36,900 nt of DNA from Candidatus Binatia bacterium (GTDB lineage: Bacteria; Desulfobacterota; Binatia; Bin18): the NCBI GenBank assembly GCA_050185455.1, contig JBFWZL010000001.1, positions 1 to 36,900 on the forward strand, in the 5' to 3' direction. This document shows, piece after piece, positions 2,378 through 22,704 of this stretch (its first letter is position 1; every line of letters starts with the position of its first letter). Position numbers and translations under genes: made by a program. The notes below the pieces were generated by a model. That model saw nothing but the letters and a program-made list of their open reading frames with translations, did no database searches and was not told the origin of the DNA.

Positions 2378-2393
2378 CTTTGAGGAGTCTGCT

Positions 2394-3713: not shown

Positions 3714-3734
3714 CACAGTGGTGAGGGAAGGGTG

Positions 3735-5408: not shown

Positions 5409-5531
5409 CCGCGACCACCAAGGAAGCAGGGGAAAACTTCAACGTCTTGCGACTCAGGAGCAAGCAGGACATCTCGTGTTCTGATTCCCACAACGTCCCC
5501 GAACACCAACTGGAGAAAAGGAGGGTCTCGT

Positions 5532-6650: not shown

Positions 6651-6713
6651 CCGCACAATCGTGGAGGCAACACTTCAGACAACTTCCTAACAAGCTCACA
6701 GGAGGAAACAGCG

Positions 6714-7190
6714 GTGAATCTGGAAGAGTTGAAGAGCCGGCTAGAGACGTTGGAGGCGATTGAAGCAATCAAGAAACTCAAGGCTCGCTACTGTCAGTGT
6801 GCGGATGAGCGCGACGCCGAGGGTTACGCCAACCTGTTTACCGAGGACGGGGTTTTCGAGGGAGGCGCCTTCGGACGTGGGCAGGGCCGGGCAGGAGTTG
6901 CTGCATTCTTACGCGGGGTGCAGCAGCAATCCTTGCCCTTTGCCCTGCACTATGTGATGAACCCGATCATCGAGGTTCACGGGGACACTGCAACAGGGCA
7001 GTGGTATCTGCTGGAGCCGTGCACCATGGTGGCCGAAGAAACTCAGGCCCAGCAAGCCGTGTGGGGGACGGCCCGGTATGAGGAGGAGTACGTGAAGGTG
7101 GCCGGCGAGTGGCAGTTCACGCATCTCAAAGTGTTTTCGTCGTTCATGACGCCGTACGAGCAGGGATGGGCGAAGAAGAAGTTTGTGTAA
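6714..7190 (+). CDS. SnoaL-like / NTF2-fold protein
   Basis: 158 aa with a GTG start after AGGAGGA. The N-terminus 'LEAIEAIKKLKARYCQCADERDAEGYANLFTEDGVFEG' is characteristic of the SnoaL_4-type NTF2 family. Confidence 0.75.
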   Translation: MNLEELKSRLETLEAIEAIKKLKARYCQCADERDAEGYANLFTEDGVFEGGAFGRGQGRAGVAAFLRGVQQQSLPFALHYVMNPIIEVHGDTATGQWYLLEPCTMVAEETQAQQAVWGTARYEEEYVKVAGEWQFTHLKVFSSFMTPYEQGWAKKKFV

Positions 7191-7739: not shown

Positions 7740-7900
7740 AGCCGTGTGGTCGTGCGACGGACCCCCTCAGCATGAAGAACCCTGCGCCTGCTCCACGAGG
7801 ACTGTTCTACAGTTGGATTATCACCGCATGTGCGTTCGAGGTCTTGCTTTTGACCTGAGGCTACTGAGGGCCACCGGCAACAGGTGAGAAGGGATTGCGT

Positions 7901-8710
7901 ATGGTGAATACCAGAGTTGCGGAACGGATCGTGACTTGTCATGACTCGACGTGGACCTATCTGTGTGCTGGAGAAGGACCGCCTGTCGTCTGGCTCCACG
8001 GCCTGTGGGGAGAGCCGGGGTGGGAGCTACATCACCAGCGTCTCGCCGAACGGTACACCGTCTATGCTCCTGCCTTGCCGGGATATCATGGTTCGTCTTT
8101 TCCCCCGTGGATGGTCGATAGTGAGGATGCCGCGACGCTGGTCATCGACTTCCTGGATACGCTCAAACTGGCGCGTCCCATCCTCATCGGGCACTCGCTG
8201 GGAGGATGGCTTGCCGCCGAGGTGGCGGTCTTTCGTCCGCTTCATCTTGCGGGCTTGGTGCTCATCAATCCGCTCGGCATTGCCCTCGACTGGACGCAGG
8301 CGCCGAACGTTTTCTACCATGATCCAGCGGCGCTTGCCGGGCTCTTTTTTGCCGATGCCACTCTCGAAGCAGCGCGTCGCTACGTCCCGCTACCAAAGGA
8401 GTGGGACGAGCGGTTTCTGCACAACCGGGAGGCGAGTATGCGCCTGGCTTTTCAGCCGTACTTGCACAGCCGCAGACTGAAAGAACGGTTACGGTTTGTC
8501 GCAGCGCCAACGCTGGTTCTCTGGGGTGAACAGGATAAAATTTTGGGGGCAGAGCATGCGAGAGAATGGCAAACGCGGTTGCCGCACTCCGAGGTGGCGC
8601 TCATCCAGGGAGCAGGTCATTTCCCCCATGTTGAGCAACCAGAGGCGTGCCTGCCAACGTTGATGGAGTTTCTGTATGCACTCTCCGCTAAGGAGGTTGC
8701 CGCGCGATGA
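7901..8710 (+). CDS. alpha/beta-fold hydrolase
   Basis: Nucleophile elbow 'GHSLGG', 'VVWLHG' oxyanion region and C-terminal 'GAGHFPHVEQPE'. The ORF opens at TTG 7895 and the ATG at 7901 is preferred. The stop overlaps the next start (ATGA). Confidence 0.85.
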   Translation: MVNTRVAERIVTCHDSTWTYLCAGEGPPVVWLHGLWGEPGWELHHQRLAERYTVYAPALPGYHGSSFPPWMVDSEDAATLVIDFLDTLKLARPILIGHSLGGWLAAEVAVFRPLHLAGLVLINPLGIALDWTQAPNVFYHDPAALAGLFFADATLEAARRYVPLPKEWDERFLHNREASMRLAFQPYLHSRRLKERLRFVAAPTLVLWGEQDKILGAEHAREWQTRLPHSEVALIQGAGHFPHVEQPEACLPTLMEFLYALSAKEVAAR

Positions 8711-9861
8711 AGATCTTCAACATGGTGTTGTTCGGTTGGCCAATCTTCCCCAAGGACGTCGAGGTCGGCCAGCCGGGCAGTTATCCGGTGCACAACAAAT
8801 ATTTCGATCCTATTACTGGCCAAAAAATTTTGCAGGATTTCTTGGAGGAGATCGACCTGAGCGAGGCGATGGGGTTTGATGGCGTGAACTGCCAGGAGCA
8901 CCACGGCAACGGCATCTTCTGCGCATTTGTACCTTCGACCACGATTATGGCCGCAGCCCTCGCCCAGCGGACGCGTCGTCTGAAGCTGGCGCTCACTGGC
9001 ACCTGTCTCCCCCTGCACAACCCGATTACCATCGCCGAAGAGATCGCCATGGTGGATCAGCTCTCGGGGGGGCGCTTGATCTGGGGCGCGCTCCGTGGAA
9101 CGGCAATTGAATATATGCACTATGGCGTCAATGCGAGCGAGTCACAGGGACGCTTTCGTGAGGCGTTTCATCTCACCAGGAAGATCCTGACCACGGAAGG
9201 ACCGTTTAGCTATGCCGGTCGGTATTACAGTGTGCGAAACTACAACCTCTGGCCCAAACCGCTGCAACAGCCCCATCCCAAGGTGTGGATGGCCTGCAAC
9301 AGTTTGGACTCGCTGGACTTCGCCGTGGAGACACAGTCCTATGTGATGACCCCGTGGGTGCCCCTCACCCAGAGTGCGTTCGTGTATGAATCGTATCATA
9401 AGTTGGCGCAACAGCAGGAACGCGTGGCGCCTACAGACTTTGACGACATGTTTGCTGGCATCTGCGCGATTTATTGCGCCGAGAGCGATACGCAAGCGCG
9501 AGCGGAGGCAGAGGAACATGTCCACACGCATTTCACCAAGGCGCTGGCGGCGTTTGACAGCAACACCATGTCGCTCATTCCCGGACACATGACGCCCCGT
9601 GGGATGCGCACCTGGCTGGCGGCGACGTCCGGCAAGGGAGGACAATCCCTGGTTTTTGGCTTCGAGGAGGCGCTGCAGAATGGGACGCTCATCGTGGGGA
9701 GCCCGCGCACCTGTATCGATCTCATCCGCCGACAACGCACGGAAGGCAAACGTGGTACGCTGCTGGCGATGTTCCAGTTCGGTTCTCTGCCGCACAAGCT
9801 GGCCATGAAAAGCATTGCGCTCTTCGGAAAAGAAGTCCTCCCGGCGATCCGGGAGGTATAA
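8707..9861 (+). CDS. LLM-class (luciferase-like) flavin-dependent oxidoreductase
   Basis: 384 aa. 'LHNPITIAEEIAMVDQLSGGRL' and the overall layout are typical of the bacterial luciferase-like monooxygenase family. It is translationally coupled to the upstream hydrolase. Confidence 0.8.
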   Translation: MKIFNMVLFGWPIFPKDVEVGQPGSYPVHNKYFDPITGQKILQDFLEEIDLSEAMGFDGVNCQEHHGNGIFCAFVPSTTIMAAALAQRTRRLKLALTGTCLPLHNPITIAEEIAMVDQLSGGRLIWGALRGTAIEYMHYGVNASESQGRFREAFHLTRKILTTEGPFSYAGRYYSVRNYNLWPKPLQQPHPKVWMACNSLDSLDFAVETQSYVMTPWVPLTQSAFVYESYHKLAQQQERVAPTDFDDMFAGICAIYCAESDTQARAEAEEHVHTHFTKALAAFDSNTMSLIPGHMTPRGMRTWLAATSGKGGQSLVFGFEEALQNGTLIVGSPRTCIDLIRRQRTEGKRGTLLAMFQFGSLPHKLAMKSIALFGKEVLPAIREV

Positions 9862-9932
9862 ACGCTGACCGATAGTTGGACCCGCGAGGCTGGAGACCGA
9901 ATCTCGGCGTCAGACGACGCCAAAGAGGATCT

Positions 9933-11123
9933 ATGGATTTTGAATACACCCCTGAACAGGAAGCCTTTCGCCAGGAAGTACGGCGCTGGCTAGAAGCGAA
10001 CATCACGCCTGACCTGTGCGTCGACGACGCCATGGATGAGCGCGTGGCTGGAGACCGAGAGACGTTTGACCGACGCGTGGCCTGGCAGAAAAAACTCCAT
10101 GCCGCTGGCTGGGTGGGTCTGTCCTGGCCCAAGCAGTACGGCGGGCGCGGGGCCACGCTCATGGAGCAAATTGTTTTTAACGAAGAGTATGGGCGAGTCC
10201 GCGCGCCGGTGCTGCCCGGCTACATGGGCGTGAGCTTGGCTGGACCAACCATCATGCAATGGGGCACGGAAGAACAAAAGCAGCGCTTCCTGCCACGGAT
10301 TCTCAACGCGGACGACATCTGGTGTCAGGGGTACTCTGAGCCGGGTGCGGGCTCAGACTTGGCGGGCATACAAACCCGCGCCGTTGATATGGGGGACTAT
10401 TTTGTTGTAAACGGACAGAAAGTGTGGACCTCCGGCGCGCAGTTTGCCCAGTGGATGGTGCTGCTGGCGCGCACCGACCCGGATGCGCCCAAACATCAGG
10501 GAATCAGCTATTTTTTACTCGACATGAAAACCCCCGGCGTTACTGTGCGACCGCTGGTGTTGATGAACGGCCACCGTCATTTCAACGAAGTTTTCTTTGA
10601 GGAAGTGCGTGCGCCGCGCGAGCAGTTGCTGGGTCCGAAGAATGAAGGTTGGAAGGTGGCGATTACGACCTTAATGTTTGAGCGTAGCTTTGCTGGCGGT
10701 GGCAGTCACGGCGCGCAAGTCCGGCGGTTAACGGCATTAGCGCAACAGGTGCTGATCGACGGTCGGCCAGCATGGGAGCAAGGCTGGGTGCGGCAGAAGC
10801 TGGCGCAGTTCGCCATTGAGTGCGAGGCGCTCAAATACACCGCGCAGCGCAACCTCACGCGCCAGCTCAAAGGCCAACCGCCAGGACCGGAGGGATCGAT
10901 GCTCAAGCTGTGCGGATCCGAACTCGGCGTGCGGATTGCTAACTTTGCTACCGAGTTGCTTGGCGCCTACGCGCTGCTCGATCAGCCGACGGAGAGTGTT
11001 CCTGATGCGCCGCGTTGGCTCAACCGCGCCCTGAGCGCGCGGCAGTACACCATCGCCGGTGGGACCAGCGAGATCCAACACAACATCATCGGTGAGCGCG
11101 TATTAGGGCTGCCCAAGGGGTGA
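9933..11123 (+). CDS. acyl-CoA dehydrogenase family protein
   Basis: 'MDFEYTPEQEAFRQEVRRWL', 'WPKQYGGRG', 'CQGYSEPGAGSDLAG', 'VNGQKVWTSGA' and C-terminal 'TIAGGTSEIQHNIIGERVLGLP' are canonical ACAD motifs. ATG 9933, after AAAGAGGA, is preferred to the upstream TTG at 9876. Confidence 0.9.
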   Translation: MDFEYTPEQEAFRQEVRRWLEANITPDLCVDDAMDERVAGDRETFDRRVAWQKKLHAAGWVGLSWPKQYGGRGATLMEQIVFNEEYGRVRAPVLPGYMGVSLAGPTIMQWGTEEQKQRFLPRILNADDIWCQGYSEPGAGSDLAGIQTRAVDMGDYFVVNGQKVWTSGAQFAQWMVLLARTDPDAPKHQGISYFLLDMKTPGVTVRPLVLMNGHRHFNEVFFEEVRAPREQLLGPKNEGWKVAITTLMFERSFAGGGSHGAQVRRLTALAQQVLIDGRPAWEQGWVRQKLAQFAIECEALKYTAQRNLTRQLKGQPPGPEGSMLKLCGSELGVRIANFATELLGAYALLDQPTESVPDAPRWLNRALSARQYTIAGGTSEIQHNIIGERVLGLPKG

Positions 11124-11241
11124 GAAGAACCGCGTGAACCAGGCAACTGGTCACGGACGTGCAGACCGGGAGCATTTCACTGTCTGTGCAGGGAGGTGGC
11201 AAGCACTAGGGGAGGAGAGAGTCAGTCCGCCTCTGGCTGGC

Positions 11242-11288
11242 TGTGCGATCTGTGCGCACACCCTGCCATGCCCCAGCACAGTTTGCAC
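11242..11288 (+). promoter_or_regulatory. candidate enhancer-binding-protein site cluster (UAS-like)
   Basis: TGTGCG (11242-11247) and the perfect palindrome TGTGCGCACA (11251-11260), then TGCCATG (11264-11270) and TTGCAC (11283-11288). The same words occur at 30606-30645, upstream of the second NtaA-like gene. Confidence 0.35.
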
Positions 11289-11373
11289 GGAAAGTGGATC
11301 GAGGCTTCCTTCAAATCCCCCTAAGTAACTGGTTTTGCATTCTTTTTCTTGTCCGAACGACTCCTCTCTACTG

Positions 11374-11389
11374 CGGCATCATTCTTGTA
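11374..11389 (+). promoter_or_regulatory. weak sigma-54 (-24/-12) promoter candidate
   Basis: CGGCATCATTCTTGTA has GG and TTG at the exact consensus spacing of TGGCAC-N5-TTGC, but the -12 reads TTGT rather than TTGC. It lies ~55 nt upstream of ATG 11444 and ~130 nt downstream of the 11251 palindrome. Confidence 0.3.
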
Positions 11390-11443
11390 GTAGACCCCTA
11401 CCACTGATTTCTGCTGGTGATTTGGGAAAAAGGAGGTTCTGCA

Positions 11444-12034
11444 ATGGTAACTACCCTCCTCGGCATTTCTGGGAGCCTAACGAAAGGCGGGAGTACCCGC
11501 ACCTTAATTGATGCTGTCTTGCAGGCCGCCAAAGAACGGTACCCGGATATTACTACCACCGTCCTGGACCTCCGTGAGGTCCAGATTGCATTTTGTGATG
11601 GTCGGCCGCTGCACGAATATGGTGATGACACGCCACAGGTTGTGGCGCGCATTCAGGCCGCGGATGCCTATGTGATTGGTACGCCCATCTACCGCGGCTC
11701 GTACACGGGCGCGCTCAAGAACTTGTTGGACCACGTGCCGGTGGAAGCGATGATAGGCAAGGTCGCCGGACTGATCGCCACCGGCGCCACTGACCATCAC
11801 TACCTCAGCATCGATCAAGAACTGCGACCGATCCTGATGTGGTTCAATATGCATCTTGTGCCGGGCAGCGTGTATGCGCGCGGCAATCAACTCCAAGGCA
11901 GCGAGATTATAGACGAGCAACTGCGCGCGCATTTGCAAGCGCTCGGAGAGGCCGTGATCGACTTGCAGCAACTTCTTCAAGGCGGGCTGCAAGGACCCCC
12001 ACCGCTGAGCCTATGGGGAAGAAAAAGAGCGTAA
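11444..12034 (+). CDS. NAD(P)H-dependent FMN reductase (SsuE/MsuE-like)
   Basis: 'LLGISGSLTKGGSTRTL' and 'AYVIGTPIYRGSYTGALKNLLDHVP' are FMN_red-family hallmarks. AGGAGG sits 7 nt before ATG 11444. It lies directly upstream of an FMNH2-dependent monooxygenase. Confidence 0.85.
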   Translation: MVTTLLGISGSLTKGGSTRTLIDAVLQAAKERYPDITTTVLDLREVQIAFCDGRPLHEYGDDTPQVVARIQAADAYVIGTPIYRGSYTGALKNLLDHVPVEAMIGKVAGLIATGATDHHYLSIDQELRPILMWFNMHLVPGSVYARGNQLQGSEIIDEQLRAHLQALGEAVIDLQQLLQGGLQGPPPLSLWGRKRA

Positions 12035-12049
12035 GCCAGGGAGACAACA

Positions 12050-13354
12050 ATGACCAAAAAGATGCATCTGACCGGTTTTATGTTGTTTGCCCCAGCGCCG
12101 CACATGATCATGTCGTGGGTATATCCTCGAGAGAAGATTCGCTATCAGTGGCACGAGCCGGAGCACTGGGAGACCATTGCCAGAACACTTGAGCGCGGCA
12201 AGTTCGATATGTTCTTCTTTGCCGACGGCTGGGCGGGCGGCACGAACCCCACTGGCGTGCGCTACGCGATTCAGTTCCCCAACCACGACCCGGTGGCGCT
12301 GGTTACCTATCTGTCGGCGATGACCAGGAAGCTCGGCTTTGCCGTGACTATGTCCACCACGTTCTATCCACCTTTTATGCTGGCGCGCAAACTGGCCACG
12401 CTCGATCACCTCACCAAAGGTCGCATTGGCTGGAATATCGTGTCGTCGATCTCCACTGCGGAGGCGCGTAATTTCGGCATGGACGACCTGCCGCCACATG
12501 ACGAACGGTATGATCGAGCCGATGAATACATGGAGGCCTGTTACCAGCTGTGGGATAGTTGGGAGCCCGACGCTCTGCTGATGGACATGGAGAACGGCAT
12601 CTTCGCGGACCCGGCCAAGGTCCATCGGGTGGATTTTCACGGGAAGTGGTACAAGACCCAGGGACCATTGACCGTGATTCCCTCACCGCAGCGCCGGCCA
12701 TACCTCTTCCAGGCAGGGCAGTCTGAGTGTGGGCGAGAGTTCGCCGCCAAGCATGCCGAATGCATCTTCGCCGCGGCCATGGGAATCAAACAAATGCGCG
12801 AGTTCTGCGACGATATCGCCGCACGAGTCGAACGCTACGGTCGTGACCCGTCTACCGTCAAGATCATCTGGGGTGCGCAACCGTTGGTGGCCAGGACCAC
12901 CGCGGACGCCAAGGAGCAGCAAGCCGCCATTCGCGCCCGCATTCCGTTGGAAGCCTCGCTAGTGCTGATGTCGGGCCACTTCAACTACGACGTGACGAAG
13001 CTCGACCTCGACACGCCGCTGAGCGAACTCAATCTAGAGGTGAGCGGGACAAAAGGCCTGCTCGACATGTATCGTCGGTCGAACCCGCATATCACCCTGC
13101 GTGAGATCGCCGGCTCCTACCTGGCCGCGAGCGAGGATAACCCGCTGATCGGCGCGCCCGAGCAGGTGGCGGACTACATGCAATACCTGTTGGAGGAAGG
13201 AGGCGGTGAGGGCTTCCAGATTACTCCTTCGTATTACGCCCCCGATTATTATGAGGACCTCGTGACGCTGCTGATTCCGGTGCTGCAAAAGCGCGGCGTC
13301 TTTCGCACGGAGTACACCAGCCGCACGTTGCGGGACTCTATGACGCAGGGATAG
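12050..13354 (+). CDS. NtaA/SnaA/DszA-type LLM flavin monooxygenase
   Basis: 434 aa. The N-terminus 'KKMHLTGFMLFAPAPHMIMSW' and 'LDHLTKGRIGWNIVSS', together with the length, fit the nitrilotriacetate monooxygenase component A / DszA subfamily. A paralog lies at 30814. Confidence 0.85.
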   Translation: MTKKMHLTGFMLFAPAPHMIMSWVYPREKIRYQWHEPEHWETIARTLERGKFDMFFFADGWAGGTNPTGVRYAIQFPNHDPVALVTYLSAMTRKLGFAVTMSTTFYPPFMLARKLATLDHLTKGRIGWNIVSSISTAEARNFGMDDLPPHDERYDRADEYMEACYQLWDSWEPDALLMDMENGIFADPAKVHRVDFHGKWYKTQGPLTVIPSPQRRPYLFQAGQSECGREFAAKHAECIFAAAMGIKQMREFCDDIAARVERYGRDPSTVKIIWGAQPLVARTTADAKEQQAAIRARIPLEASLVLMSGHFNYDVTKLDLDTPLSELNLEVSGTKGLLDMYRRSNPHITLREIAGSYLAASEDNPLIGAPEQVADYMQYLLEEGGGEGFQITPSYYAPDYYEDLVTLLIPVLQKRGVFRTEYTSRTLRDSMTQG

Positions 13355-13430
13355 AAACACGACATGCCGCAATGCAATCAACAGGGTCTTTCTTCCCGAG
13401 ACAGCAATTTCCCCATGGAGGTGTGAGATC

Positions 13431-14321
13431 ATGGCCTTTTCCATCGAAGCGGCGTTGCCGCCACTGATCCGCCGTGACGTTGAGTACGCCGAACAGCACT
13501 ACCCGCCTATTCCTGAAACAATGCCCGCTGTTATCGCTGCCGACCCGGGCTGGAGTCGCCAGTGGACGAACATCAGAAACTCTATCGAGCAAGGCAAAAC
13601 CGCCCCTCGCAAGACGAAAGATCCCTCGCGGCGGCAGTTGGTCGCCAAGTATTTAGCGGGAATGGGCCACATGGAGTTACAGCTGATCGTCCAAGGCTGT
13701 ACCTACGCGGCGACGCAGTACGACATGCCCGCTGCCTGGCGCACGTGTATCATCAAACAAGCCTACGACGACATGCAGCACGCGGCGGGCTTCATCACGC
13801 GTGGGTCCCGTATGGCCAACGAAGACTACTGGCAGGGTACGGACGCACCGTATCTCTGGCCCGTGGACGCCTATCAGCCGATTTTACGACGCGATCTGGG
13901 CGGTTTCTTGGTGGCGATCGGGCTGCATACCGAGGCGTATCCGGCGTGGACCAATCTCAGCGGCGGCGGTCCGATCGCGGACATCTCCGTCGGCGCGTGG
14001 AGCTTACAAGAGATCGAAGATGAGGCATGGCACCTGACGTTTCTCCTGCCCGCGATCAAAGAGTATCTGCACACGGGCGCCCCGGAGGAACAAGACCGCC
14101 GTAAGCGGCAGATGGTGACGGATAACGAAATTCTTCTCGAAGCAGCGGTCCAGCCAGCCTACAAGAACGCGAAGGAATTCGTGGTGGGCCGTCTGGGGCA
14201 AGATCCGGCAATACTCTACGGCTATGAGCATCTCGATGAGCGCACGCGCCACATCTTCCGCTCCATTGGGATCGAAGAAAGCTACTGGCCCGCGTATCTT
14301 AAACAGGGTCTGGGAGTCTAG
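13431..14321 (+). CDS. uncharacterised protein with a ferritin-like diiron-carboxylate ligand pattern
   Basis: 296 aa with a GGAGGTG RBS. Candidate ligands are E82, D114-x-x-H117, E168 and E198-x-x-H201, with ~30-residue spacings, the pattern of four-helix-bundle diiron proteins. All are conserved in the paralog at 19985. No family name recognised. Confidence 0.6.
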   Translation: MAFSIEAALPPLIRRDVEYAEQHYPPIPETMPAVIAADPGWSRQWTNIRNSIEQGKTAPRKTKDPSRRQLVAKYLAGMGHMELQLIVQGCTYAATQYDMPAAWRTCIIKQAYDDMQHAAGFITRGSRMANEDYWQGTDAPYLWPVDAYQPILRRDLGGFLVAIGLHTEAYPAWTNLSGGGPIADISVGAWSLQEIEDEAWHLTFLLPAIKEYLHTGAPEEQDRRKRQMVTDNEILLEAAVQPAYKNAKEFVVGRLGQDPAILYGYEHLDERTRHIFRSIGIEESYWPAYLKQGLGV

Positions 14322-14393
14322 AGAGTCAAAGAGTCTAGAGTCAAAGAGACAGACCCCCAGACGCAAGAGACTCAAGCACTAAGGAGGAAAGAC

Positions 14394-15845
14394 ATGGCAA
14401 CACAGCAACAGAGTAAATCACGGGCCGTACGAGCCAAACTCACACATCCGGTTATCGACTCCGATGGGCATACCGTCGAATTCGAACCTGCACTGTACGA
14501 TTACATCAAGCAAGTTGGCGGCGCGTCAGTCCTGGAGCGGTATCTGTCCCGACGTGGGTGGGGTGGCTGGTATCGCCGGTCTCCCGAAGAACGGCGTGAG
14601 CATCGCACCGTCCGTCCACCCTGGTGGGCGCTGCCGACCAAGAACACGCTCGATCGCGCCACCGCCACACTGCCAAAGCTGCTCGCCGAGCGGTTAGACG
14701 ACATCGGCCTCGACTTCACTGTTTTGTACCCGACCACGGGACTGTTCTTTCCTCACCTGGACGACGAAGAACTCCGGCGCGCCTGTTGCCGGGGGCTCAA
14801 CACCTTCCATGCCGAGATTTTTCGCGAACACGCCGATCGTATGACGCCGGCAGCGGCTATTCCCATGCACACGCCCCAAGAAGCGATTGAAGAACTGGAA
14901 TACGCAGTCAAGACGCTCGGTCTCAAGGCCATTGTCATGGCCGGCCATGTCCGTCGGCCTATTCCGGCGGCCGCGCGGATCGCGCCGGGCGCGGGGCGGA
15001 AAGCCTTGTGGCTCGATACGTTTTGTCTTGAGAGCGAATACGATTATGATCCGGTGTGGGCCAAGTGTGTCGAACTCGGCGTAGTTCCCACCTTTCACTC
15101 CGCTGGCATGGGCTGGGGCAGCCGTATGTCAACCTCTAACTACATGTATAACCACATCGGCCACTTCGCCTCGGCGGGCGAGGCTCTGTGTAAGGCCTTG
15201 TTCTTTGGCGGCGTGACGCGCCGCTTCCCGACGTTACGCTTCGGGTTCTTGGAGTGTGGGGTAAGCTGGGCGTGCAGCCTGTATGCTGACATGATCGGCC
15301 ATTGGGCGAAACGCAATGGCAAAGCCATGGAGAATTACAACCCGGCCAATCTGAACCCGGAAATGCTGCTTGATCTTTTTCAGCGCTATGGCGGCAAGAT
15401 GGTGGAAGGCAAACTGGAACAACTGCGGCAGGGCTCTGGCGGCAGCATGTTGGCGAGCACGACAGAAGACCCGGCGACGATTGATGACTGGTGGCGCTGT
15501 GGGATTGAGAAGCCCGAAGACATTAAAGCCCTGTTCGTACCCAATTTTTACTTTGGCTGTGAAGCGGATGATCCCATGAACGCCAGCGCGTTTAACACCA
15601 AAATCAACCCCTTCGGAGCCAAGCTCAAGGCCGTGTTCAGTTCCGATATTGGGCATTGGGATGTGCCGGACATGACGGAAGTGACCGAAGAGGCGTATGA
15701 GTTAGTGGAGGAGGGAAAGATGACGGAAGAAGACTTCCGCGAATTCGTCTTTGTGAATCCCACGAAGCTGTGGACGGATATGAACCCGCATTTCTTCAAG
15801 GGGACGCGGGTCGAAAAAGATGTTGAGAAACTGATAACACGGTGA
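14394..15845 (+). CDS. amidohydrolase-2 family protein (long form)
   Basis: 483 aa. 'VIDSDGHTVEFEP' at the N-terminus and 'FSSDIGHWD' near the C-terminus. An AAGGAGGA RBS precedes the start. Confidence 0.8.
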   Translation: MATQQQSKSRAVRAKLTHPVIDSDGHTVEFEPALYDYIKQVGGASVLERYLSRRGWGGWYRRSPEERREHRTVRPPWWALPTKNTLDRATATLPKLLAERLDDIGLDFTVLYPTTGLFFPHLDDEELRRACCRGLNTFHAEIFREHADRMTPAAAIPMHTPQEAIEELEYAVKTLGLKAIVMAGHVRRPIPAAARIAPGAGRKALWLDTFCLESEYDYDPVWAKCVELGVVPTFHSAGMGWGSRMSTSNYMYNHIGHFASAGEALCKALFFGGVTRRFPTLRFGFLECGVSWACSLYADMIGHWAKRNGKAMENYNPANLNPEMLLDLFQRYGGKMVEGKLEQLRQGSGGSMLASTTEDPATIDDWWRCGIEKPEDIKALFVPNFYFGCEADDPMNASAFNTKINPFGAKLKAVFSSDIGHWDVPDMTEVTEEAYELVEEGKMTEEDFREFVFVNPTKLWTDMNPHFFKGTRVEKDVEKLITR

Positions 15846-17038
15846 GTGAGGTAGATGTGAAACGTATTGCCCTTGCGGACAACACACTACGGCTTGGGCT
15901 GTTTTACCCAAACACCCCGTCGATTCACGTGACCTCGCGCGTGGTGGCGGATATGAATCCCGATTCGATGTCTCTGGCGACACACAGGCGCATTGCCGCG
16001 GTCAGCGAAGAGATTGGCCTTGATTATGTATTTATCGCCGACCGCTGGGCGCCGTACGGTCCCGAGTCCACCGCCGCGCATCATCAGGACCCGATGCTAG
16101 CGGCGTTCATCTTGGGCGCGACGCTGATTGGGATGACCGAGCGTATCGGCATTATCACCACGCTGCACACCACCTATTTCCATCCGGCTCATCTTGCCCG
16201 TATCGGCGCGAACCTGGACACGTTGTCCGGCGGTCGCTGGGGCTGGAACATCGTGACTGGCGTCACTACCGATGAGATGGAAATCTTCGGTTACAAGGGC
16301 GGCGTGGCCCATGACCTCCGCTACGATATGGCGCGTGAGATGCTCGCGTTGATCAAAAAGATCTGGGACGGCATGCGGCGGGAAAACGCGTATGTGGACT
16401 GGCAGGGCACGCATTACACCATGCGTGGCGCGGTGGTGGGACCGGGACCGCTGCAACAGCCGTATCCGCTGCTGGTCAATGCTGGCGCGTCGGACGCGGG
16501 CCGCCGCTTCGCCGCTGAGCACTGTGATTACATCTTCCTTACCGACAGTTCACAAGAAGGGGTTCTCCGGCGTATGCAAAGCGCGCGGGAGCAGGCCGTC
16601 GCCTTTGGCCGCCCGGCGGACGCCGTGCGGTTGATGATGGCGGCGCGGGTGATCGTGCGCGACACGCAGGAAGAAGCGGATCAAGCGCGGCACTGGATTG
16701 CGAATAATGTTGATCTCCCAGCGGCGCGCAACTTTGTCGCGGCCCTCATGGGCGGGATTGAAAGCATTCGCGAAGCGTTCGGCGACCGGGATGAGGCGGA
16801 ACTTTTGCGCGTGTGGGGAGGTGCGGTAGGCGAGCACGAAGCCTATTGCTGCGGGCCGCCGGAAAAGATCGCCCGCTCGATTATCGACCTGCACCGCGAG
16901 GTCGGCTGCCAGGGATTACTCCTGACGTTTCCCTTGTGGCATGAGGATGAGATTCGCCGTTTTGGCACACAGGTGATGCCGTTACTAGCGGAGGCAGGCG
17001 TGTGGACGCACCCGAGTCAGCGGGGGTGGAATTGGTAG
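15842..17038 (+). CDS. LLM-class flavin-dependent oxidoreductase
   Basis: 398 aa. 'FIADRWAP', 'IGANLDTLSGGRWGWNIVTG' and 'VNAGASDAGRRFAAEHCDYIF' are luciferase-like monooxygenase motifs. The GTG start overlaps the upstream stop (GTGA). Confidence 0.8.
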   Translation: MSEVDVKRIALADNTLRLGLFYPNTPSIHVTSRVVADMNPDSMSLATHRRIAAVSEEIGLDYVFIADRWAPYGPESTAAHHQDPMLAAFILGATLIGMTERIGIITTLHTTYFHPAHLARIGANLDTLSGGRWGWNIVTGVTTDEMEIFGYKGGVAHDLRYDMAREMLALIKKIWDGMRRENAYVDWQGTHYTMRGAVVGPGPLQQPYPLLVNAGASDAGRRFAAEHCDYIFLTDSSQEGVLRRMQSAREQAVAFGRPADAVRLMMAARVIVRDTQEEADQARHWIANNVDLPAARNFVAALMGGIESIREAFGDRDEAELLRVWGGAVGEHEAYCCGPPEKIARSIIDLHREVGCQGLLLTFPLWHEDEIRRFGTQVMPLLAEAGVWTHPSQRGWNW

Positions 17039-17182
17039 AGGGGGATTGCCGGGGAGTCTCACAGGGGAATGAAAACATACCACCTCAAGAAGGAAGGGAG
17101 CAACAATGAGCGTACGTGATCAGGCTGGCGCGGTTGTACGGGTGTGAACAAAGAACCAGCGAGAAAAGGTGAAGAGACTTTT

Positions 17183-18577
17183 ATGGGCAGGACATCGAGA
17201 ATATGCATTGGCAGCTGGGGCGTCAACCTTCTTGTGTTGATGGCCCTGCCCCTGGCCGCCTTCGCCGCGGACCCGGCTGCCAATCTCAAGACGACACCCA
17301 CCTGGCGCACCGTGGCCGAGTTGACCGTAGCGGAGCGGACGCTCGTCGATTGGCGGGCTGAAACGCCCCGCAACGCCACCTTCCCCTACATACCCGCGGA
17401 GCGCTACCCGTTTGAGCCCCCGTACACCGCCGAAGAGATGGGGTATCGGGCCATGGAATTTAGTCACTCGCCCCGCTGGTCCTGTAACCTCATCGATGTC
17501 ACCGGCACGCTCACCAGTGAGGGCTATCTGTTTACCTCTAAGCTCTACAGCCCGATTTTCTATGTCCCCAATGCCAAGGGGCTGACCGGCTTTGCCGGTG
17601 AACTCTATGGTACCAAGCCCGGCGAACCCACGCGCCAGGTTACCGGCCAGGATGTGTTTCCGCCGGAAAACTATGGCAATCAAATGGTGATGATCCAGTA
17701 TCGCACGGACCAGGAGCACTCAACCCGATGGAACCTCTTTTTCTACAGTGAGGGATTGCGTCGGGTGCGCCGCCAACCCTCACCCCGCCGTGGGGACAAA
17801 CTCGCGCAAGGCGCAGAAGGCTTGGATGACGTCTTCGGGCGCGACCCTTGGGAATTCAGGTGGGAGCTGCTGGGCACGGACGTGCTGTTTCAGACCGTAC
17901 GCTTTCCGGTGACCCGCCCCACGGTCACTCTGGCGCGGCCCGATGGCACGTTCTACCCCGTTGCCCCCAAAGATTTACGCCTCATGGGGGAGGAGTATCC
18001 CTTTTACACCCCTGAAAGAGGGGTCAAGTGTTGGGTGGTCAAAGCCCAGGTCAAAGAGGACTGGTTGCCCCACTACTATGCGTCCACGATCCTGTACTGG
18101 CTTGATCAGCACTATTTCTATCCGCTACGCATTGAACAGTACGACACAGCGGGGAATCTCATCTTTATCGAAACACGCCTGGCTAAACTGCTCAACCCGG
18201 CCATGGGCGACAAGGGGTATGGGATGCTCTTCAATCACTATTGGGACGTGACCCTCGACTACATGCGCTACAGCGTGCACGACGCCCATGAGGTGCGGGA
18301 GTGGTCCAAGCGCGACCAAGAAGTCTTTTTCAATCCGGCGGTCCTGCCGCGGAAGTGGTATTTTGCGCCGCTCAAGAGTCAGGCAGAGGTGACTGCTGCT
18401 GACCAGTATTTTCTCCGTCCGGCGCTTGATCGCGACAAGTTCCCTGGGCACCGAAAGATTGTGCTGCCGCCAGAACTCGCGGCCCGCATTCAGGCCCAAG
18501 AAGCCAAGGGGCATCTAGTCTTTGACGCACAAGAGCAGGCATTGACCTCTACCGTAAGGGGGAAAGAGGACAGATGA
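17183..18577 (+). CDS. DUF1329 family protein (second, orphan copy)
   Basis: Signal peptide MGRTSRICIGSWGVNLLVLMALPLAAFA|AD. Collinear similarity to the 2394 gene along the whole length. No DUF1302 partner follows. Confidence 0.7.
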   Translation: MGRTSRICIGSWGVNLLVLMALPLAAFAADPAANLKTTPTWRTVAELTVAERTLVDWRAETPRNATFPYIPAERYPFEPPYTAEEMGYRAMEFSHSPRWSCNLIDVTGTLTSEGYLFTSKLYSPIFYVPNAKGLTGFAGELYGTKPGEPTRQVTGQDVFPPENYGNQMVMIQYRTDQEHSTRWNLFFYSEGLRRVRRQPSPRRGDKLAQGAEGLDDVFGRDPWEFRWELLGTDVLFQTVRFPVTRPTVTLARPDGTFYPVAPKDLRLMGEEYPFYTPERGVKCWVVKAQVKEDWLPHYYASTILYWLDQHYFYPLRIEQYDTAGNLIFIETRLAKLLNPAMGDKGYGMLFNHYWDVTLDYMRYSVHDAHEVREWSKRDQEVFFNPAVLPRKWYFAPLKSQAEVTAADQYFLRPALDRDKFPGHRKIVLPPELAARIQAQEAKGHLVFDAQEQALTSTVRGKEDR

Positions 18578-18606
18578 GGGGAAGTACAGCAGTGACGAGC
18601 CGCACT

Positions 18607-18754
18607 ATGAGCGAACATGAGTGTGAGGACATTCGTGCGCGCTTCCACCTAATCGCCAAGGAAAAAATTGCCGCGCCGGACTGTTAGGAAGCTGACGATT
18701 CCCAAAGAGTTCGGCGACCTCGGCGGCGGCACTGTAGACAACATTTTGAGATGA
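18607..18754 (+). pseudogene. decayed acyl-CoA dehydrogenase N-terminal relic
   Basis: MSEHECEDIRARFHLIAKEKIAAPDC* (18607-18687) resembles the ACAD '..EEHE.IRD.VR.FA.EKIAP' start. In a shifted frame, KLTIPKEFGDLGGGTVDNILR* (18689-18754) resembles the ACAD 'GLTIPEEYGGLG' segment. The intervening ~30 residues are missing. Confidence 0.4.
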
Positions 18755-18775
18755 ACCGAAAAGGAGGAGACTCGC

Positions 18776-19960
18776 ATGGCGCAGCAGAAGCAAGTAGAGA
18801 CCGAACTGGTGATGGGCTGGGAGAGCCGCAAACGGCTACAAGCAAAAGGCTTCACCAACAAAGAAGGCCAGATCTTCCGGGCCATGGCCCCGGTGCTGGA
18901 GCAGGAAGGGCTGATTACGCCGACGCCGGCATCCTATGTGGTCCAACATTTTGACGTACCCGCCGTGATGCGTCCGGAAGACTGGAAGGTGACCATTGGC
19001 GGTCACGTCAAACAGCCAGTGACGCTGACCTATAATGACCTGCGCGAGCTGCCGGGCCGCACGGTGCGCATGGTCATGGAATGCTCGGGTAACGACGCGC
19101 AATTCTTCGATGCGCAGTACGCCGAGCGCTTTATCGGCCTCATGCGCTATCTCGATCCCGATTATCAGGGGAAGCGCTGGCAGGGAGGACTCATCTCGGC
19201 GGGAGAGTTTACTGGCGTGCCGTTAGCCAGTGTGCTGGAGAGAGCCGGACTCAAACCTAATGCCGTCAATGTGCGTGTGGAGGGGACGGATCGCGGCGCG
19301 CCCGACCTGGTTATGCATGGTCTGCCGCCATCAGACACCCCGGTGCCGCCGTTTAACTATGACAAAGGTCTGCCCATGGAGAAGGCGTTGCATCCGGATA
19401 CTATTCTGGCCTGGGCGCAAAACGGCGAAGCCCTGGACCACGTTCATGGCGCGCCGGTGCGGTTGGTCGTGCCCGGCTGGCCAGGGAACTGGTCGGTGAA
19501 GTGGGTGCAACGCATCGAGGTGCTCGATCGTCCGGCGACCTGCTGGTACCAGACCGAGTACTATTACTATAGTCAGTCGCCAGACGATCCCCAGCGCGAG
19601 ATCATTACGACCCTGCCCGTCAAATCGATGGTGACCTACCCCAAAGACGACAATCCGACGCTGTCACGCGGTCGCCATGTCCTGCGAGGGTTTGCGTGGA
19701 GTGGCGCGGGGGCGATTACGCGTGTGGAAGTCAGCCTGGATGACGGTAAGACCTGGCAGGCGGCGCATCTGGAAGAGCCGCGAGAGAAATGGTTGTGGAC
19801 GCGTTGGTCGCTACCGTGGGATTTTCAAGCACCAGGGCAATACGCGATTCTGTGTCGCGCCACGGATGAAGCCGGACGGGTACAGAGCCGCGAGGCGCGG
19901 TGGAACCAGTTGCGCAAGAACTTCGATGGCATCGTGCCGGTGCAGGTGACGATCGCATAG
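18776..19960 (+). CDS. sulfite-oxidase-fold molybdopterin oxidoreductase (SUOX family), no signal peptide
   Basis: 'ITPTPASYVVQHFDVP', 'WKVTIGGHVKQPVTLTYNDLRELP', the Mo-ligand cysteine context 'VMECSGN', and a dimerisation-domain motif 'RGFAWSGAGAITRVEVSLDDGKTWQAAHL'. The N-terminus is hydrophilic, with no Sec or Tat signal, and there is no heme domain. Confidence 0.85.
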   Translation: MAQQKQVETELVMGWESRKRLQAKGFTNKEGQIFRAMAPVLEQEGLITPTPASYVVQHFDVPAVMRPEDWKVTIGGHVKQPVTLTYNDLRELPGRTVRMVMECSGNDAQFFDAQYAERFIGLMRYLDPDYQGKRWQGGLISAGEFTGVPLASVLERAGLKPNAVNVRVEGTDRGAPDLVMHGLPPSDTPVPPFNYDKGLPMEKALHPDTILAWAQNGEALDHVHGAPVRLVVPGWPGNWSVKWVQRIEVLDRPATCWYQTEYYYYSQSPDDPQREIITTLPVKSMVTYPKDDNPTLSRGRHVLRGFAWSGAGAITRVEVSLDDGKTWQAAHLEEPREKWLWTRWSLPWDFQAPGQYAILCRATDEAGRVQSREARWNQLRKNFDGIVPVQVTIA

Positions 19961-19984
19961 TACGATTAAGAATAAGGAGCGTGT

Positions 19985-20863
19985 ATGTTCGATCTCAATA
20001 CCCTTCCGCAACTGATTCGCCGCGACATTGAGCACGGTGAAAGCAATTTCCCTACTATTCCCGATGACGTACCTGCCGTGGTGGAAATCGACCCAAGCTG
20101 GAAGCGGCAGTGGCTAGCCGCGCGGGCTCGGGTGCGGCAGGAGGGGCCGACCTATGAGGGCTTGGACGCCAAACGTCAACGGTACTTCGCCCGCTACCTG
20201 GCCGTGGTCGGTTTAGCCGAGCTGGAAATGATCGTCCTGGGCTGCACCTACGCCGCCACGCACTACGAAATGCCGGCGGCCTGGCGCACCTGCCTGATCA
20301 AACAGGCGTATGAGGACATGCAACACGCGGCCAGCTACATCACCCGCGGCTGCAAACTGAGCGGGGAGAACTATTGGAACGGCATCGCGGACGTGCCCTA
20401 TCGTGAGAATATCGCTAAGACATACCATCCCATCTTGCGGCGCGACCTCGGCGGGTTTTTCGCCGCGATTGGTCTGCATACCGAAGCCTATCCGGCGGAG
20501 ACCAACATCTTAGAGCCCTTTGCGTTGGACCCGGTGTTGGTGCGCTGGATGCCCAATGAGATTCAAGAGGAAGCTGGGCATCTGACGTTTCTCTATCCGG
20601 CGATGCGCGAGTATGTACACAGCGGCACGCCAGAGGAACAGGACCGGCGCAATCGACAAATGGTGGCGGACAATGAAACGCTGCTGGAAACGGCGATGGA
20701 GGCCAACCGCCGCAATGCTGAGACCTTTGTGGTGGGCAAGCTGGGCATGGACCCGGCAGTGATGGAAGCGTTCGCGCATATTCCTGAGCGTACGCGTTAT
20801 ATCTTCCAGACTATCGGTATCGAAGAGAGTTACTGGCCGCGGTATCTGAAAAAGAGCGATTAG
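19985..20863 (+). CDS. uncharacterised ferritin-like diiron-pattern protein (paralog of 13431)
   Basis: 292 aa, roughly half the residues identical to 13431-14321 by eye. Shared blocks include GCTYAAT.Y.MPAAWRTC.IKQAY.DMQHA, ILRRDLGGF..AIGLHTEAYPA, EI..EA.HLTFL, PEEQDRR.RQMV.DNE and IGIEESYWP.YLK. It starts 24 nt after the SUOX-like gene. Confidence 0.6.
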   Translation: MFDLNTLPQLIRRDIEHGESNFPTIPDDVPAVVEIDPSWKRQWLAARARVRQEGPTYEGLDAKRQRYFARYLAVVGLAELEMIVLGCTYAATHYEMPAAWRTCLIKQAYEDMQHAASYITRGCKLSGENYWNGIADVPYRENIAKTYHPILRRDLGGFFAAIGLHTEAYPAETNILEPFALDPVLVRWMPNEIQEEAGHLTFLYPAMREYVHSGTPEEQDRRNRQMVADNETLLETAMEANRRNAETFVVGKLGMDPAVMEAFAHIPERTRYIFQTIGIEESYWPRYLKKSD

Positions 20864-20988
20864 CACTCAGCGTTCAGCCGTCAGCTTTTTACAGAGGGAA
20901 ACGGTGAAACGGGGAGAAGAAACCCCCGACTGCCCGGTTCTTGTCTTGTGCTGAAAGCTGATAGCTATTTTTCAAAGGAGGGACACTT

Positions 20989-22686
20989 ATGGCGACCATG
21001 ATTAGCGCGCAGGCGCTCAAGACACTTATGGAGAGTGACGCATTGTATGCCGTGCTCGATGTGCGTGACTGGGGTGAGTTTACGCTGGGGCAGATTCCCG
21101 AGACGCTCTCCCTGCCGCGCGGACATCTGGAAAAATACATTGCCGTGCTGGTCCCTAAGAAAGACAGCCACGTCATTCTCTACTGTGACGCTGGCCAACG
21201 CTCAGCTCGCGCTGCCGCGACGCTAGAGTCGCTTGGCTATACGAACGCGTCAGTCTTAGATGGCGGCCTGCGCAGTTGGAAAGCGGCCGGCTATGAGACG
21301 ATCCACGGCTGGAGTTTGCGCGGCAAGGAATATGGGGAACGGTTACAGGTGGAGGAAGACATCCCGGAGCTGACGGCGGAAGAACTCCATACCCGGCTCG
21401 CACAGGGCGAGAAGCTCTACATTCTCGACACGCGGACCGAACCTGAGTTTCTGAACTCGCATCTGCCCGGGGCGTATAGCACGCCCGGCGGCCAGCTTCC
21501 GGTCACCGTCACGGATATCGTGCGGGAGCGGAGCATTCCCATCGTGACGACCTGCGCCGGTCGCACGCGGAGCTTGCTTGGCGCTCATTTGCTGCGGCGG
21601 ATGGGATTTCCCCAGGTGTACGCGCTCAAAGGGGGCACGGGCGCGTGGCGTATCGCTGGGTATGGCGGCGAATTACAGTCAGGCCCGGGCGTCCCTGTTC
21701 CACCGATCTCGGCGGTGGGGCAGGCGGCCTGCGCCCAGTTTGCCGAACGGGTTACTACTGAAGACAGCATCCCTTTCATGTCCCCGCGTGAACTCAAAAC
21801 TCGACAGGAACAGGGGGAACTGTGCTACTTACTGGATGTGCGTCAGCTCGACGAATATCGCGTCGGTCATGTTCCCGGCGCGCGCTTCTGTCCAGGGACG
21901 CAGGCTGCGTTATTGGTCGAGTGTTTCGTTGGCGTCAAGAATGCCGCCATTGTGACGACGTGCGATAGCCGGGCGCGCGGCATTCTGGCCGCCGCTCTGT
22001 TTAAAGACATGGGCTACCCCCACGTATTCGTGCTCGACGGCGGAACGACGGCGTGGACTGCAAACGGGTTTGCGCTGGAAACGGGTGACCCGCACGAAGT
22101 CGATTATGGCCAGCCGGGTTGGCTGGCTCGACTCCTCCTCGGGCTTCCTGCCGGGGTGGAATCGCAAGCACTGCCGGTCCCCGGTTTGGCTGAGGCGCGC
22201 GCGCAGACGAATTTTATCGCTCTAGGGGCATTACAAGCTCGGCTCGCTACTGGTGAACGGTGTGCGTTACTGGATCTGCGCAGTGCTGGAGACTTCGCCA
22301 CCGCCCATATCCCTGGCGCCCGCTGGCTGTCGCGTGGGAAGTTGGATCTCGAGGTCGAGCAGGAAGCGCCGGACAAGAATGCCGAAGTAGTGCTCTATTG
22401 TCGCAAAGGCGCGGAATCCACGCTATCCATGCCAATGCTGAAAGCCTTGGGCTACCACAGCGTGTCCGTCCGTGAAGGCGGTTTCGAGGCATGGAAGGGA
22501 GCAGGGCTTCCGACCGAGCAAGGGTTAGGAGCACAAGCCGAATTTGAGGAACTGGCGATTGCGGAAGTCGGATTGCTCGGCAGTGGACCGTATGGCTACA
22601 ACAATGAACGCATGGCCAAGTATTTGAAGGATGAGGAAGAACTAGGCGCGAAGTTCCGGCGAAGGACCGAGCGACCACAGGCATAA
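20989..22686 (+). CDS. four-domain rhodanese-like sulfurtransferase
   Basis: Four tandem rhodanese modules each retain an active-site Cys loop: 'YCDAGQRS', 'TCAGRTRS', 'TCDSRARG' and 'YCRKGAES'. Each is followed by the (L/V).GG...W motif. A ~60-aa charged C-terminal tail follows. Confidence 0.85.
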   Translation: MATMISAQALKTLMESDALYAVLDVRDWGEFTLGQIPETLSLPRGHLEKYIAVLVPKKDSHVILYCDAGQRSARAAATLESLGYTNASVLDGGLRSWKAAGYETIHGWSLRGKEYGERLQVEEDIPELTAEELHTRLAQGEKLYILDTRTEPEFLNSHLPGAYSTPGGQLPVTVTDIVRERSIPIVTTCAGRTRSLLGAHLLRRMGFPQVYALKGGTGAWRIAGYGGELQSGPGVPVPPISAVGQAACAQFAERVTTEDSIPFMSPRELKTRQEQGELCYLLDVRQLDEYRVGHVPGARFCPGTQAALLVECFVGVKNAAIVTTCDSRARGILAAALFKDMGYPHVFVLDGGTTAWTANGFALETGDPHEVDYGQPGWLARLLLGLPAGVESQALPVPGLAEARAQTNFIALGALQARLATGERCALLDLRSAGDFATAHIPGARWLSRGKLDLEVEQEAPDKNAEVVLYCRKGAESTLSMPMLKALGYHSVSVREGGFEAWKGAGLPTEQGLGAQAEFEELAIAEVGLLGSGPYGYNNERMAKYLKDEEELGAKFRRRTERPQA

Positions 22687-22704
22687 CGAAAAAAAGGAGA
22701 ACTC

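Follow-up and report, generated by a model that had tools for sequence, protein, structure and literature searches.

Some of the hardest oxidations in biology are the work of ferritin-like dimetal enzymes, and the R2-like ligand-binding oxidase (R2lox), AurF, aldehyde-deformylating oxygenase (ADO) and Mn/Fe R2c families have all been sources of new chemistry. Several such systems frame what is described here: two paralogous genes of an unnamed protein family in a stretch of 36,900 nucleotides (nt) from a Candidatus Binatia bacterium (GenBank assembly GCA_050185455.1, contig JBFWZL010000001.1, positions 1 to 36,900 of the forward strand; "the window" below). In the R2 subunits of ribonucleotide reductase (RNR), the radical Tyr lies four residues after the first His of the metal site. 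In Escherichia coli NrdF the metal ligands are D67, E98, H101, E158, E192, and H195, and in E. coli PaaA they are E42, E72, H75, D126, E155, and H158, all residues having been checked in the two sequences. R2lox and AurF/CmlI are stand-alone proteins of ~285-330 amino acids (aa) with an R2-type fold and an O2-activating Fe2 or Mn/Fe site; the alpha subunits of multicomponent monooxygenases (PF02332) are ~500 aa long and depend on several other components (beta and gamma subunits, effector, ferredoxin, and reductase). A diiron precedent for organosulfur oxidation is provided by DsoABCDEF, which oxidizes dimethyl sulfide (DMS; references cited in PMC13352529).

We propose that the two Binatia genes represent a new family in the R2-like branch of the ferritin superfamily, whose members are probably O2-activating dimetal oxidases or oxygenases of organosulfur catabolism. 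The argument draws on a conserved set of candidate metal ligands, on predicted structures, and on gene context across many loci.

A complete set of candidate ligands in two paralogs

The two open reading frames (ORFs), each behind a good ribosome-binding site, and their associated features are as follows.

13431 to 14321, + strand: copy 1 (FAM1), 296 aa, predicted R2-like ferritin-superfamily protein (ORF call)
19985 to 20863, + strand: copy 2 (FAM2), 292-aa paralog of copy 1 (ORF call)
13417 to 13421, + strand: Shine-Dalgarno sequence GGAGG, 9 nt 5' of the copy-1 ATG (read from the sequence)
19974 to 19979, + strand: Shine-Dalgarno sequence AAGGAG, 5 nt 5' of the copy-2 ATG (read from the sequence)
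13674 to 14033, + strand: putative metal-site core of copy 1, from codon E82 (13674-13676) to codon H201 (14031-14033)

Judging from 57% identity across 289 residues (BLASTP, E = 9e-119), the copies are real paralogs; with N-termini that do not look like signal peptides, both are treated as soluble, cytoplasmic proteins of ~34 kDa. An initial sequence-only reading had recognized a ferritin-like diiron pattern in copy 1, with 32 and 30 residues separating each lone carboxylate from its (D/E)xxH motif. The residues it named (E82, D114-M-Q-H117, E168, and E198-A-W-H201) are all present, in a spacing of 32/3/51/30/3 that contains both intervals, and E82, D114, H117, E168, E198, and H201 are the proposed dimetal ligands. 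The corresponding set in copy 2 is E79, D111, H114, E167, E196, and H199. Here the same reading was right about E79, D111xxH114, and E167 and one residue off in the last motif, which it gave as E195xxH198; the motif is E196-A-G-H199, and residue 198 is Gly.

A homologue search returned 63 clusters, every one unnamed or labeled "hypothetical protein" and none with a precomputed Pfam domain. In the family alignment built from it (60 sequences, 42-93% identity to copy 1), 31 of the 296 columns are invariant. E82, D114, H117, E168, and H201 are kept in 60/60 sequences and E198 in 59/60, so that the E/(D/E)xxH/E/ExxH set first seen in a pair of paralogs holds family-wide; loss of these residues among homologues, which the sequence-only reading had named as evidence against itself, was not seen. 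By our own estimate, which assumes that ~19% of paralog-identical positions are invariant, at least five of six pre-chosen positions would be invariant by chance with a probability of ~1e-3. The same helices carry further family-invariant residues (C90, W103, H166, Y170, W190, and E194), and the C-terminal motif IGIEESYWP is strongly conserved. Position H117+4 is not conserved, being Phe in 33 and Tyr in 27 of the 60. A wider alignment that takes in relatives at 16-21% identity retains nine invariant columns, among them E82, H117, E198, and H201. The family thus shows, twice and conserved, the carboxylate...(D/E)xxH repeat of the ferritin-like, dimetal-carboxylate superfamily.

Predicted fold and structural relatives

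AlphaFold2 models were made with the family alignment, and the placement of residues was read from secondary structure and the predicted local distance difference test (pLDDT). Both models are all-helical and of high confidence (pLDDT 92.7 and predicted template-modeling score [pTM] 0.90 for copy 1; pLDDT 96.4 and pTM 0.92 for copy 2). In copy 1 the six residues all fall within four long core helices (65-96, 101-129, 156-169 or 156-174, and 185-214), in blocks with pLDDT of 95-98, and the core at 13674 to 14033 spans these helices. In the copy-2 model the conserved C-terminal motif is ordered, with pLDDT of about 95.

When each model was compared with the PDB by Foldseek, the 50 best matches consisted solely of ferritin-like dimetal-carboxylate proteins for both copies. 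These included RNR R2 proteins of classes Ia, Ib, Ic, and Ie, the R2-like ligand-binding oxidase, CmlI, PaaA and PaaC, aldehyde-deformylating oxygenase, acyl-ACP desaturases, toluene monooxygenase hydroxylases, and 3ez0, an unannotated ferritin-like structure. Template-modeling (TM) scores were 0.45-0.66 and probabilities about 1.0, with E-values of only 3e-3 to 0.2. Both models share with solved members of the R2-like branch a four-helix core in an all-alpha fold. On this modeling the fold class is clear and no solved protein is closely related. As far as computation allows, the ferritin-like interpretation of the sequence-only reading is supported by this comparison, which it had suggested, and no match to a well-characterized non-metal family emerged.

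Neither ferritin nor Dps is among the 50 best matches of either model. The same is true of the heme-oxygenase-like diiron oxidase (HDO), DUF455, MiaE, Coq7, AOX, Mn catalase, and rubrerythrin families, none of which gave a Pfam or NCBIfam match at E <= 1; the sequence-only reading had singled out three of these, DUF455, MiaE, and the heme-oxygenase-like families, for profile comparison. We set aside an HDO fold, for which there is no match, and iron storage of the ferritin or Dps kind, for which size and topology are wrong.

A rare family without a name

No Pfam, NCBIfam, or PDB sequence model matches above threshold, in agreement with the earlier failure to assign the protein to a named family. 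The only Pfam hit of copy 1 is Phenol_Hydrox (PF02332; 16.5 bits, E = 0.006, below the gathering threshold of 24.4), which also appears, below threshold, in 3 of 60 family members. The only NCBIfam hit of copy 2 is the RNR beta model (NF007184; 13 bits against a cutoff of 310, E = 0.047). These weak hints from hidden Markov models (HMMs) point only to diiron families. PF05138 (PaaA/PaaC) gave no match at E <= 1 in Pfam scans of both copies and the 60 members, and phmmer and hmmsearch runs against all PDB sequences, which started from a single protein, from the family profile, and from two broader profiles, returned nothing relevant. When the family profile was compared with E. coli NrdF and PaaA by hhalign, in local and forced-global modes, no meaningful alignment resulted (probability 0.1% for NrdF; for PaaA, the second ExxH of the family aligned to the first PaaA motif only, at 2%), so a ligand-by-ligand correspondence is not demonstrable at the sequence level. 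Nor did literature searches on diiron or ferritin-like proteins together with rhodanese, thiol dioxygenase, C-S bond cleavage, or Binatia bring up a description of the family.

The sequence searches describe a rare, isolated family: among 1.84 billion cluster representatives, an exhaustive search with an HMMER profile yielded just 34 proteins, only 7 of them below 1e-30 and many of them fragments. A scan of a genome collection gave 15 loci, all in metagenome-assembled genomes labeled Deltaproteobacteria, Candidatus Binatia, Methylomirabilota, Pseudomonadales, Alphaproteobacteria, and Enterobacteriaceae, and a metagenome scan added 26 more. One protein (P0064) joins the first ~220 family residues to an unrelated C-terminal sequence, and at one locus (L049) the gene is broken into two neighboring ORFs; each case looks like an artefact of assembly or frameshift and not a real fusion.

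Gene neighborhoods across the family

ORFs were called in all fetched loci and clustered by BLASTP, and a locus was dropped when its family protein shared at least 97% identity with another. Of the 44 non-redundant family genes that remained, 42 had usable context, for which four genes on either side were considered. The neighbors tallied in this way are as follows (loci within four genes; directly adjacent where counted).

Luciferase-like FMNH2 monooxygenase: 23 within four genes, 12 directly adjacent
Acyl-CoA dehydrogenase-like (ACAD-like) protein: 13 within four genes, 2 directly adjacent
~184-aa cupin: 11 within four genes, 10 directly adjacent
Multi-domain rhodanese: 10 within four genes, 5 directly adjacent
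483-aa Amidohydro_2 protein: 9 within four genes, 3 directly adjacent
Methyltransferase: 8 within four genes
DsbA-like protein: 6 within four genes, 6 directly adjacent
TauD: 6 within four genes, 2 directly adjacent
SorA-like protein: 6 within four genes, 1 directly adjacent
CoA-transferase III: 5 within four genes
Two-domain rhodanese: 4 within four genes
Zn-alcohol dehydrogenase: 4 within four genes, 4 directly adjacent

The sequence-only reading had proposed mapping co-occurrence, and the map shows recurrent neighbors of organosulfur type. Judged by gene content, the family sits almost always among genes of organosulfur catabolism, an unusually coherent setting. The ~184-aa cupin is, from its solved relatives, a thiol-dioxygenase homologue (cysteine dioxygenase, E = 8e-8, together with mercaptosuccinate and 3-mercaptopropionate dioxygenases). 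At three loci (L037, L040, and L044) a SorA-like gene is followed by a small cytochrome c with a signal peptide (CVMCH, SorB-like) and then by the family gene; at L040, the contig that extends furthest, the cupin, a monooxygenase, and a methyltransferase come next. At two loci the family gene lies just after an operon of ArsR, persulfide-dioxygenase-rhodanese, and YeeE genes. Genes for a reductase, ferredoxin, or effector do not recur near the family in the 42 loci.

A more distant subfamily (~45% identity to copy 1) has its own arrangement, in which the family gene is followed, after a short gap, by the ~184-aa cupin, itself without a Pfam assignment above threshold (L008, positions 8925-9479; also L016, L018, L019, L020, and L038, with the same arrangement in L040, L042, L043, L051, and L053). 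An NtaA/DmoA monooxygenase or ACAD-like gene, plus a methyltransferase, often comes after the cupin.

The neighborhood in the window

Genes from ~7895 to 24225 of the window all lie on the + strand with short gaps. Their order is alpha/beta hydrolase, luciferase-like monooxygenase, ACAD-like protein, MsuE-like FMN reductase, NtaA/DmoA monooxygenase, copy 1, the 483-aa Amidohydro_2 protein, a second luciferase-like monooxygenase, DUF1329, a SorA/SoxC-like protein, copy 2, a four-domain rhodanese, and a PAS-sigma54 activator. Downstream of this series lie a Fer4-NrfD fusion with a 978-aa molybdopterin oxidoreductase, a SulP permease, and an NtaA/DmoA monooxygenase, and then a second sigma54 activator, a CoA-transferase III, and a carboxyltransferase. 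The genes closest to the two copies are as follows.

11417 to 12034, + strand: MsuE/SsuE-like NAD(P)H-dependent FMN reductase (PF03358, E = 2e-36; TIGR03566 MsuE below cutoff)
12050 to 13354, + strand: NtaA/DmoA-family FMNH2-dependent monooxygenase, 76 nt 5' of copy 1 (TIGR03860, 480 bits against a cutoff of 279.7)
14394 to 15845, + strand: 483-aa Amidohydro_2 protein, 72 nt 3' of copy 1
15842 to 17038, + strand: second luciferase-like FMNH2 monooxygenase, SfnG/DmoA-like below cutoffs, with a 4-nt overlap between its start and the preceding stop
18776 to 19960, + strand: SorA/SoxC-like molybdopterin sulfite dehydrogenase, 24 nt 5' of copy 2 (below equivalog cutoffs)
20989 to 22686, + strand: 565-aa protein with four rhodanese domains, 125 nt 3' of copy 2

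The flanks of copy 1 are thus the NtaA-like monooxygenase and the amidohydrolase that the sequence-only reading had named. What it missed is the pathway context, which is organosulfur catabolism and not a generic NtaA/amidohydrolase pathway: as annotated from its genes, the content of the window is that of an organosulfur catabolism whose end products are sulfite and sulfate. The established path to sulfite from DMS, by way of DMSO, DMSO2, methanesulfinate, and methanesulfonate, relies on two-component flavin monooxygenases served by one MsuE-type reductase (PMC13352529), and the MsuE/SsuE-like reductase here is predicted to supply FMNH2 to the monooxygenases of the cluster.

The 483-aa Amidohydro_2 protein matches no NCBIfam model. 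Its best relatives of solved structure are PtmU3 (6omp, E = 1e-6) and AibH (6m1w, E = 1.6e-4), recently described as amidohydrolase-related dinuclear oxygenases (PMC13154177, PMC10811679), with decarboxylases of the ACMSD type scoring between the two (E about 3e-5). From this kinship it may be a dimetal oxygenase rather than a hydrolase.

Other genes in the window add detail to the island. The SorA/SoxC-like molybdoenzyme has no obvious Tat signal and no cytochrome gene adjacent to it. By eye, the 565-aa rhodanese has a Cys in each active-site loop (CDAGQRS, CAGRTRS, CDSRARG, and CRKGAES); it carries a conserved C-terminal extension and lies directly 3' of family orthologues also in L004, L013, L023, and L032. 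At 24278-28752 (+), a fused 4Fe-4S dicluster/NrfD membrane protein (512 aa) precedes the 978-aa molybdopterin oxidoreductase, whose nearest models (PhsA, DmsA, and TtrA) are all far below cutoff, in a layout that resembles SoeABC or PsrABC; the SulP permease is next, at 28778-30553. The PAS-domain sigma-54 activators at 22705-24225 and 31967-33592 (+) belong to the SfnR type. For the second of them, the listed GTG start (31967) gives an overlap of 164 nt with the monooxygenase gene before it, and the true start is probably further downstream. Around the genes, a scan for the sigma-54 -24/-12 consensus found fewer sites than in shuffled controls, and scans for sigma-70 promoters and terminators found no more than in shuffled sequence. 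DUF1329/LolA-like and DUF1302 genes, an outer-membrane-associated pair in the catabolic island, occur at 2394-5408 and 17144-18577 (+), and three more Amidohydro_2 or SnoaL genes at 991-7190.

Comparison with described dimetal-carboxylate proteins

The closest structural likeness is to NrdF (class Ib/Ie R2), the best Foldseek match for both models (TM 0.52-0.60 over ~285-315 columns, probability 1.0). The family resembles it in length (~290-320 aa) and in its helix order and E/D...ExxH...E...ExxH spacing, which is 31/3/57/34/3 in NrdF. It differs in its minimal RNR-beta score, in lacking a conserved radical Tyr at H+4, in the absence of nrdE, nrdI, and nrdH nearby, and in its sulfur-catabolism setting; neither nrdA nor nrdE is among the recurrent neighbors of the 42 loci. 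An identity as RNR R2 was rejected for want of a conserved Tyr and an alpha-subunit gene, and the metal-free class Ie R2 because all ligands are present in the family.

With R2lox and AurF/CmlI the family shares stand-alone organization and general size and fold. R2lox and CmlI occur in both Foldseek lists, the TM scores for R2lox and AurF/CmlI being only 0.31-0.46. There is no sequence-level relationship and no secondary-metabolite context was seen. An extra invariant carboxylate, E194, stands four residues before E198, at the position of the extra His ligand of AurF/CmlI, so that the family has Glu there and not His.

PaaA is nearly identical in ligand spacing (30/3/51/29/3), and PaaA/PaaC reach Foldseek TM scores of 0.45-0.64. 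CoA-transferase and ACAD-like genes near the family recall the setting of these proteins; unlike them, the family has neither a PF05138 match nor PaaB/D/E partners or other paa genes nearby. A dead subunit of the PaaC kind was rejected, as the family ligands are conserved. The likeness to multicomponent monooxygenases is the Phenol_Hydrox hit, the only Pfam hint, and none of the partners that the PF02332 alpha subunits need is found by the family genes.

A sister family

A search from the most distant match of the family (P0095), aimed at a named family, reached only another unnamed one, a sister family of 138 clusters, all "hypothetical," from Chloroflexota, Binatia, and Acidoferrales metagenome-assembled genomes. 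By hhalign it is homologous to the present family over the full length (probability 96.6%, E = 5.5e-10). It retains E82, E(114), H117, E198, and H201, five of the six positions, and adjoins cupin, NicX, and amidohydrolase-like genes. It differs in lacking the third-helix Glu (E168), C90, H166, and E194, and in occurring as three to five tandem paralogs beside ABC-transporter binding proteins, with no sulfur genes evident. In two such arrays (L026, 2755-6946; L027, 4885-12826), paralogs of 280-281 aa are interspersed with solute-binding proteins of ABC transporters, ahead of ParB_N, NicX, and cupin genes.

Proposed function and alternatives

In the mechanism that we favor, the six residues would bind a carboxylate-bridged Fe2 or Mn/Fe pair, and the reduced pair would react with O2, as in R2, R2lox, AurF/CmlI, and PaaA, to oxidize a small organosulfur intermediate on a path that may run from thiol or thioether through sulfinate or sulfonate and sulfite to sulfate. 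The electron source would be either the substrate or the cluster's pool of free FMNH2/NAD(P)H: in view of the lack of a recurrent reductase or ferredoxin beside the family, a substrate-driven oxidase/oxygenase or reduction from that pool is favored. More tentatively, oxidation may take place at sulfur, the substrate being a thiol, a persulfide delivered by the rhodanese, or a sulfinate that is turned into a sulfonate before the FMNH2-dependent C-S monooxygenase acts. This guess comes from the gene order (family gene, thiol dioxygenase, and monooxygenase), the rhodanese linkage, and the invariant Cys90, which lies two helical turns from E82 and might take part in sulfur oxidation. To our knowledge, such sulfur-oxidation chemistry is not known for the ferritin-like fold, and we think it unlikely, if worth stating, that the family is a new class of single-component dimetal-carboxylate sulfur oxidases/oxygenases, in which an R2-fold Fe2 or Mn/Fe site works with Cys90 and no dedicated reductase.

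Several observations weigh against an O2-activating dimetal enzyme of organosulfur catabolism. No electron-transfer partner recurs, though one is required by AurF/CmlI, PaaA, ADO, and the multicomponent monooxygenases alike. Ferroxidase centers and peroxidases use the same ligand set as well, and the first (D/E)xxH motif has Asp, less common there than Glu. No sequence model of any characterized diiron family reaches threshold, and the profile comparisons with NrdF and PaaA were empty; the fold assignment rests on predicted structures and moderate TM scores (Foldseek E-values of at least 3e-3). Context also varies by subfamily (amidohydrolase and rhodanese; cupin and monooxygenase; Zn-alcohol dehydrogenase), which makes a single substrate hard to deduce.

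Each of the alternatives we considered fits the data less well. Hydroxylation or epoxidation of a carbon skeleton, for instance that of a CoA thioester, by a PaaA-like or bacterial multicomponent monooxygenase-like (BMM-like) oxygenase would account for the ligand spacing almost identical to that of PaaA, for PaaA and PaaC among the Foldseek matches, for the CoA-transferase III, ACAD-like, and carboxyltransferase genes that recur nearby, and for the weak Phenol_Hydrox match. It is nevertheless quite improbable, given that no PaaB/C/D/E-like, reductase, ferredoxin, or effector genes accompany the family, that PF05138 does not match, and that the strongest and most specific neighbors act on sulfur (thiol dioxygenase, rhodanese, and sulfite dehydrogenase). 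Slightly less probable again is an accessory role in iron handling, in which a ferroxidase-type or metallochaperone-like protein would load or maintain adjacent non-heme-iron enzymes, its clients being the thiol dioxygenase cupin, TauD, the persulfide dioxygenase, the amidohydrolase-related protein, and NicX. The ferroxidase centers of bacterioferritins do use the same E/ExxH/E/ExxH set, and both the family and its sister adjoin cupins, NicX, and amidohydrolase-like metalloenzymes; set against this are a length of ~295 aa and an R2-type topology in place of a ferritin/Dps subunit of 160-180 aa (none being among the 50 best Foldseek matches), the apparent pocket lined by invariant C90, H166, Y170, and W190, and the rarity of the family, which is far greater than that of the enzymes it would serve.

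We give little credence to a non-catalytic or ligand-binding role, whether as a PaaC-like scaffold, an R2lox-like lipid binder, or an R2-like radical or activating subunit, for example of the 483-aa protein. Such a role is suggested by the best structural matches (R2 subunits, R2lox, and PaaC), the conserved IGIEESYWP motif, and tight adjacency to the 483-aa protein in several loci; but the full ligand set is conserved, unlike that of PaaC, the R2 radical-Tyr position is more often Phe (33/60) than Tyr (27/60), the C-terminal motif is modeled as ordered (pLDDT about 95) and not as a free tail, and many loci lack the 483-aa partner. Least credible of all is a scavenger of peroxide or reactive oxygen species, rubrerythrin- or Mn-catalase-like, that would clear H2O2 from uncoupled two-component flavin monooxygenases. 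Luciferase-like monooxygenases are indeed the most frequent neighbor (23/42), and OsmC and AhpD-like genes occur in several loci. Yet neither HMMs nor the 50 best Foldseek matches include rubrerythrin or Mn catalase, flavin monooxygenase clusters are ubiquitous while the family has 34 representatives in 1.84 billion proteins, and the link with rhodanese and thiol dioxygenase would be left unexplained.

Implications

The family is a tractable target, its members being soluble proteins of ~34 kDa, by prediction, with confident models and obvious point mutants. Should it prove to be only an accessory protein, it would add to the superfamily in a routine way; room for new chemistry is left by the coherent sulfur context and the absence of partner proteins. 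If the less likely reading as a single-component sulfur oxidase or oxygenase is true, the family would fill an unassigned step between thiol dioxygenase, FMNH2-dependent C-S monooxygenases, and sulfite dehydrogenase in the organosulfur catabolism of soil. As an enzyme, it would mark an as yet unassigned oxidative step in terrestrial sulfur cycling. The bacteria in which this setting is seen are uncultured, from soil and groundwater, and labeled Binatia, "Deltaproteobacteria," and Methylomirabilota.

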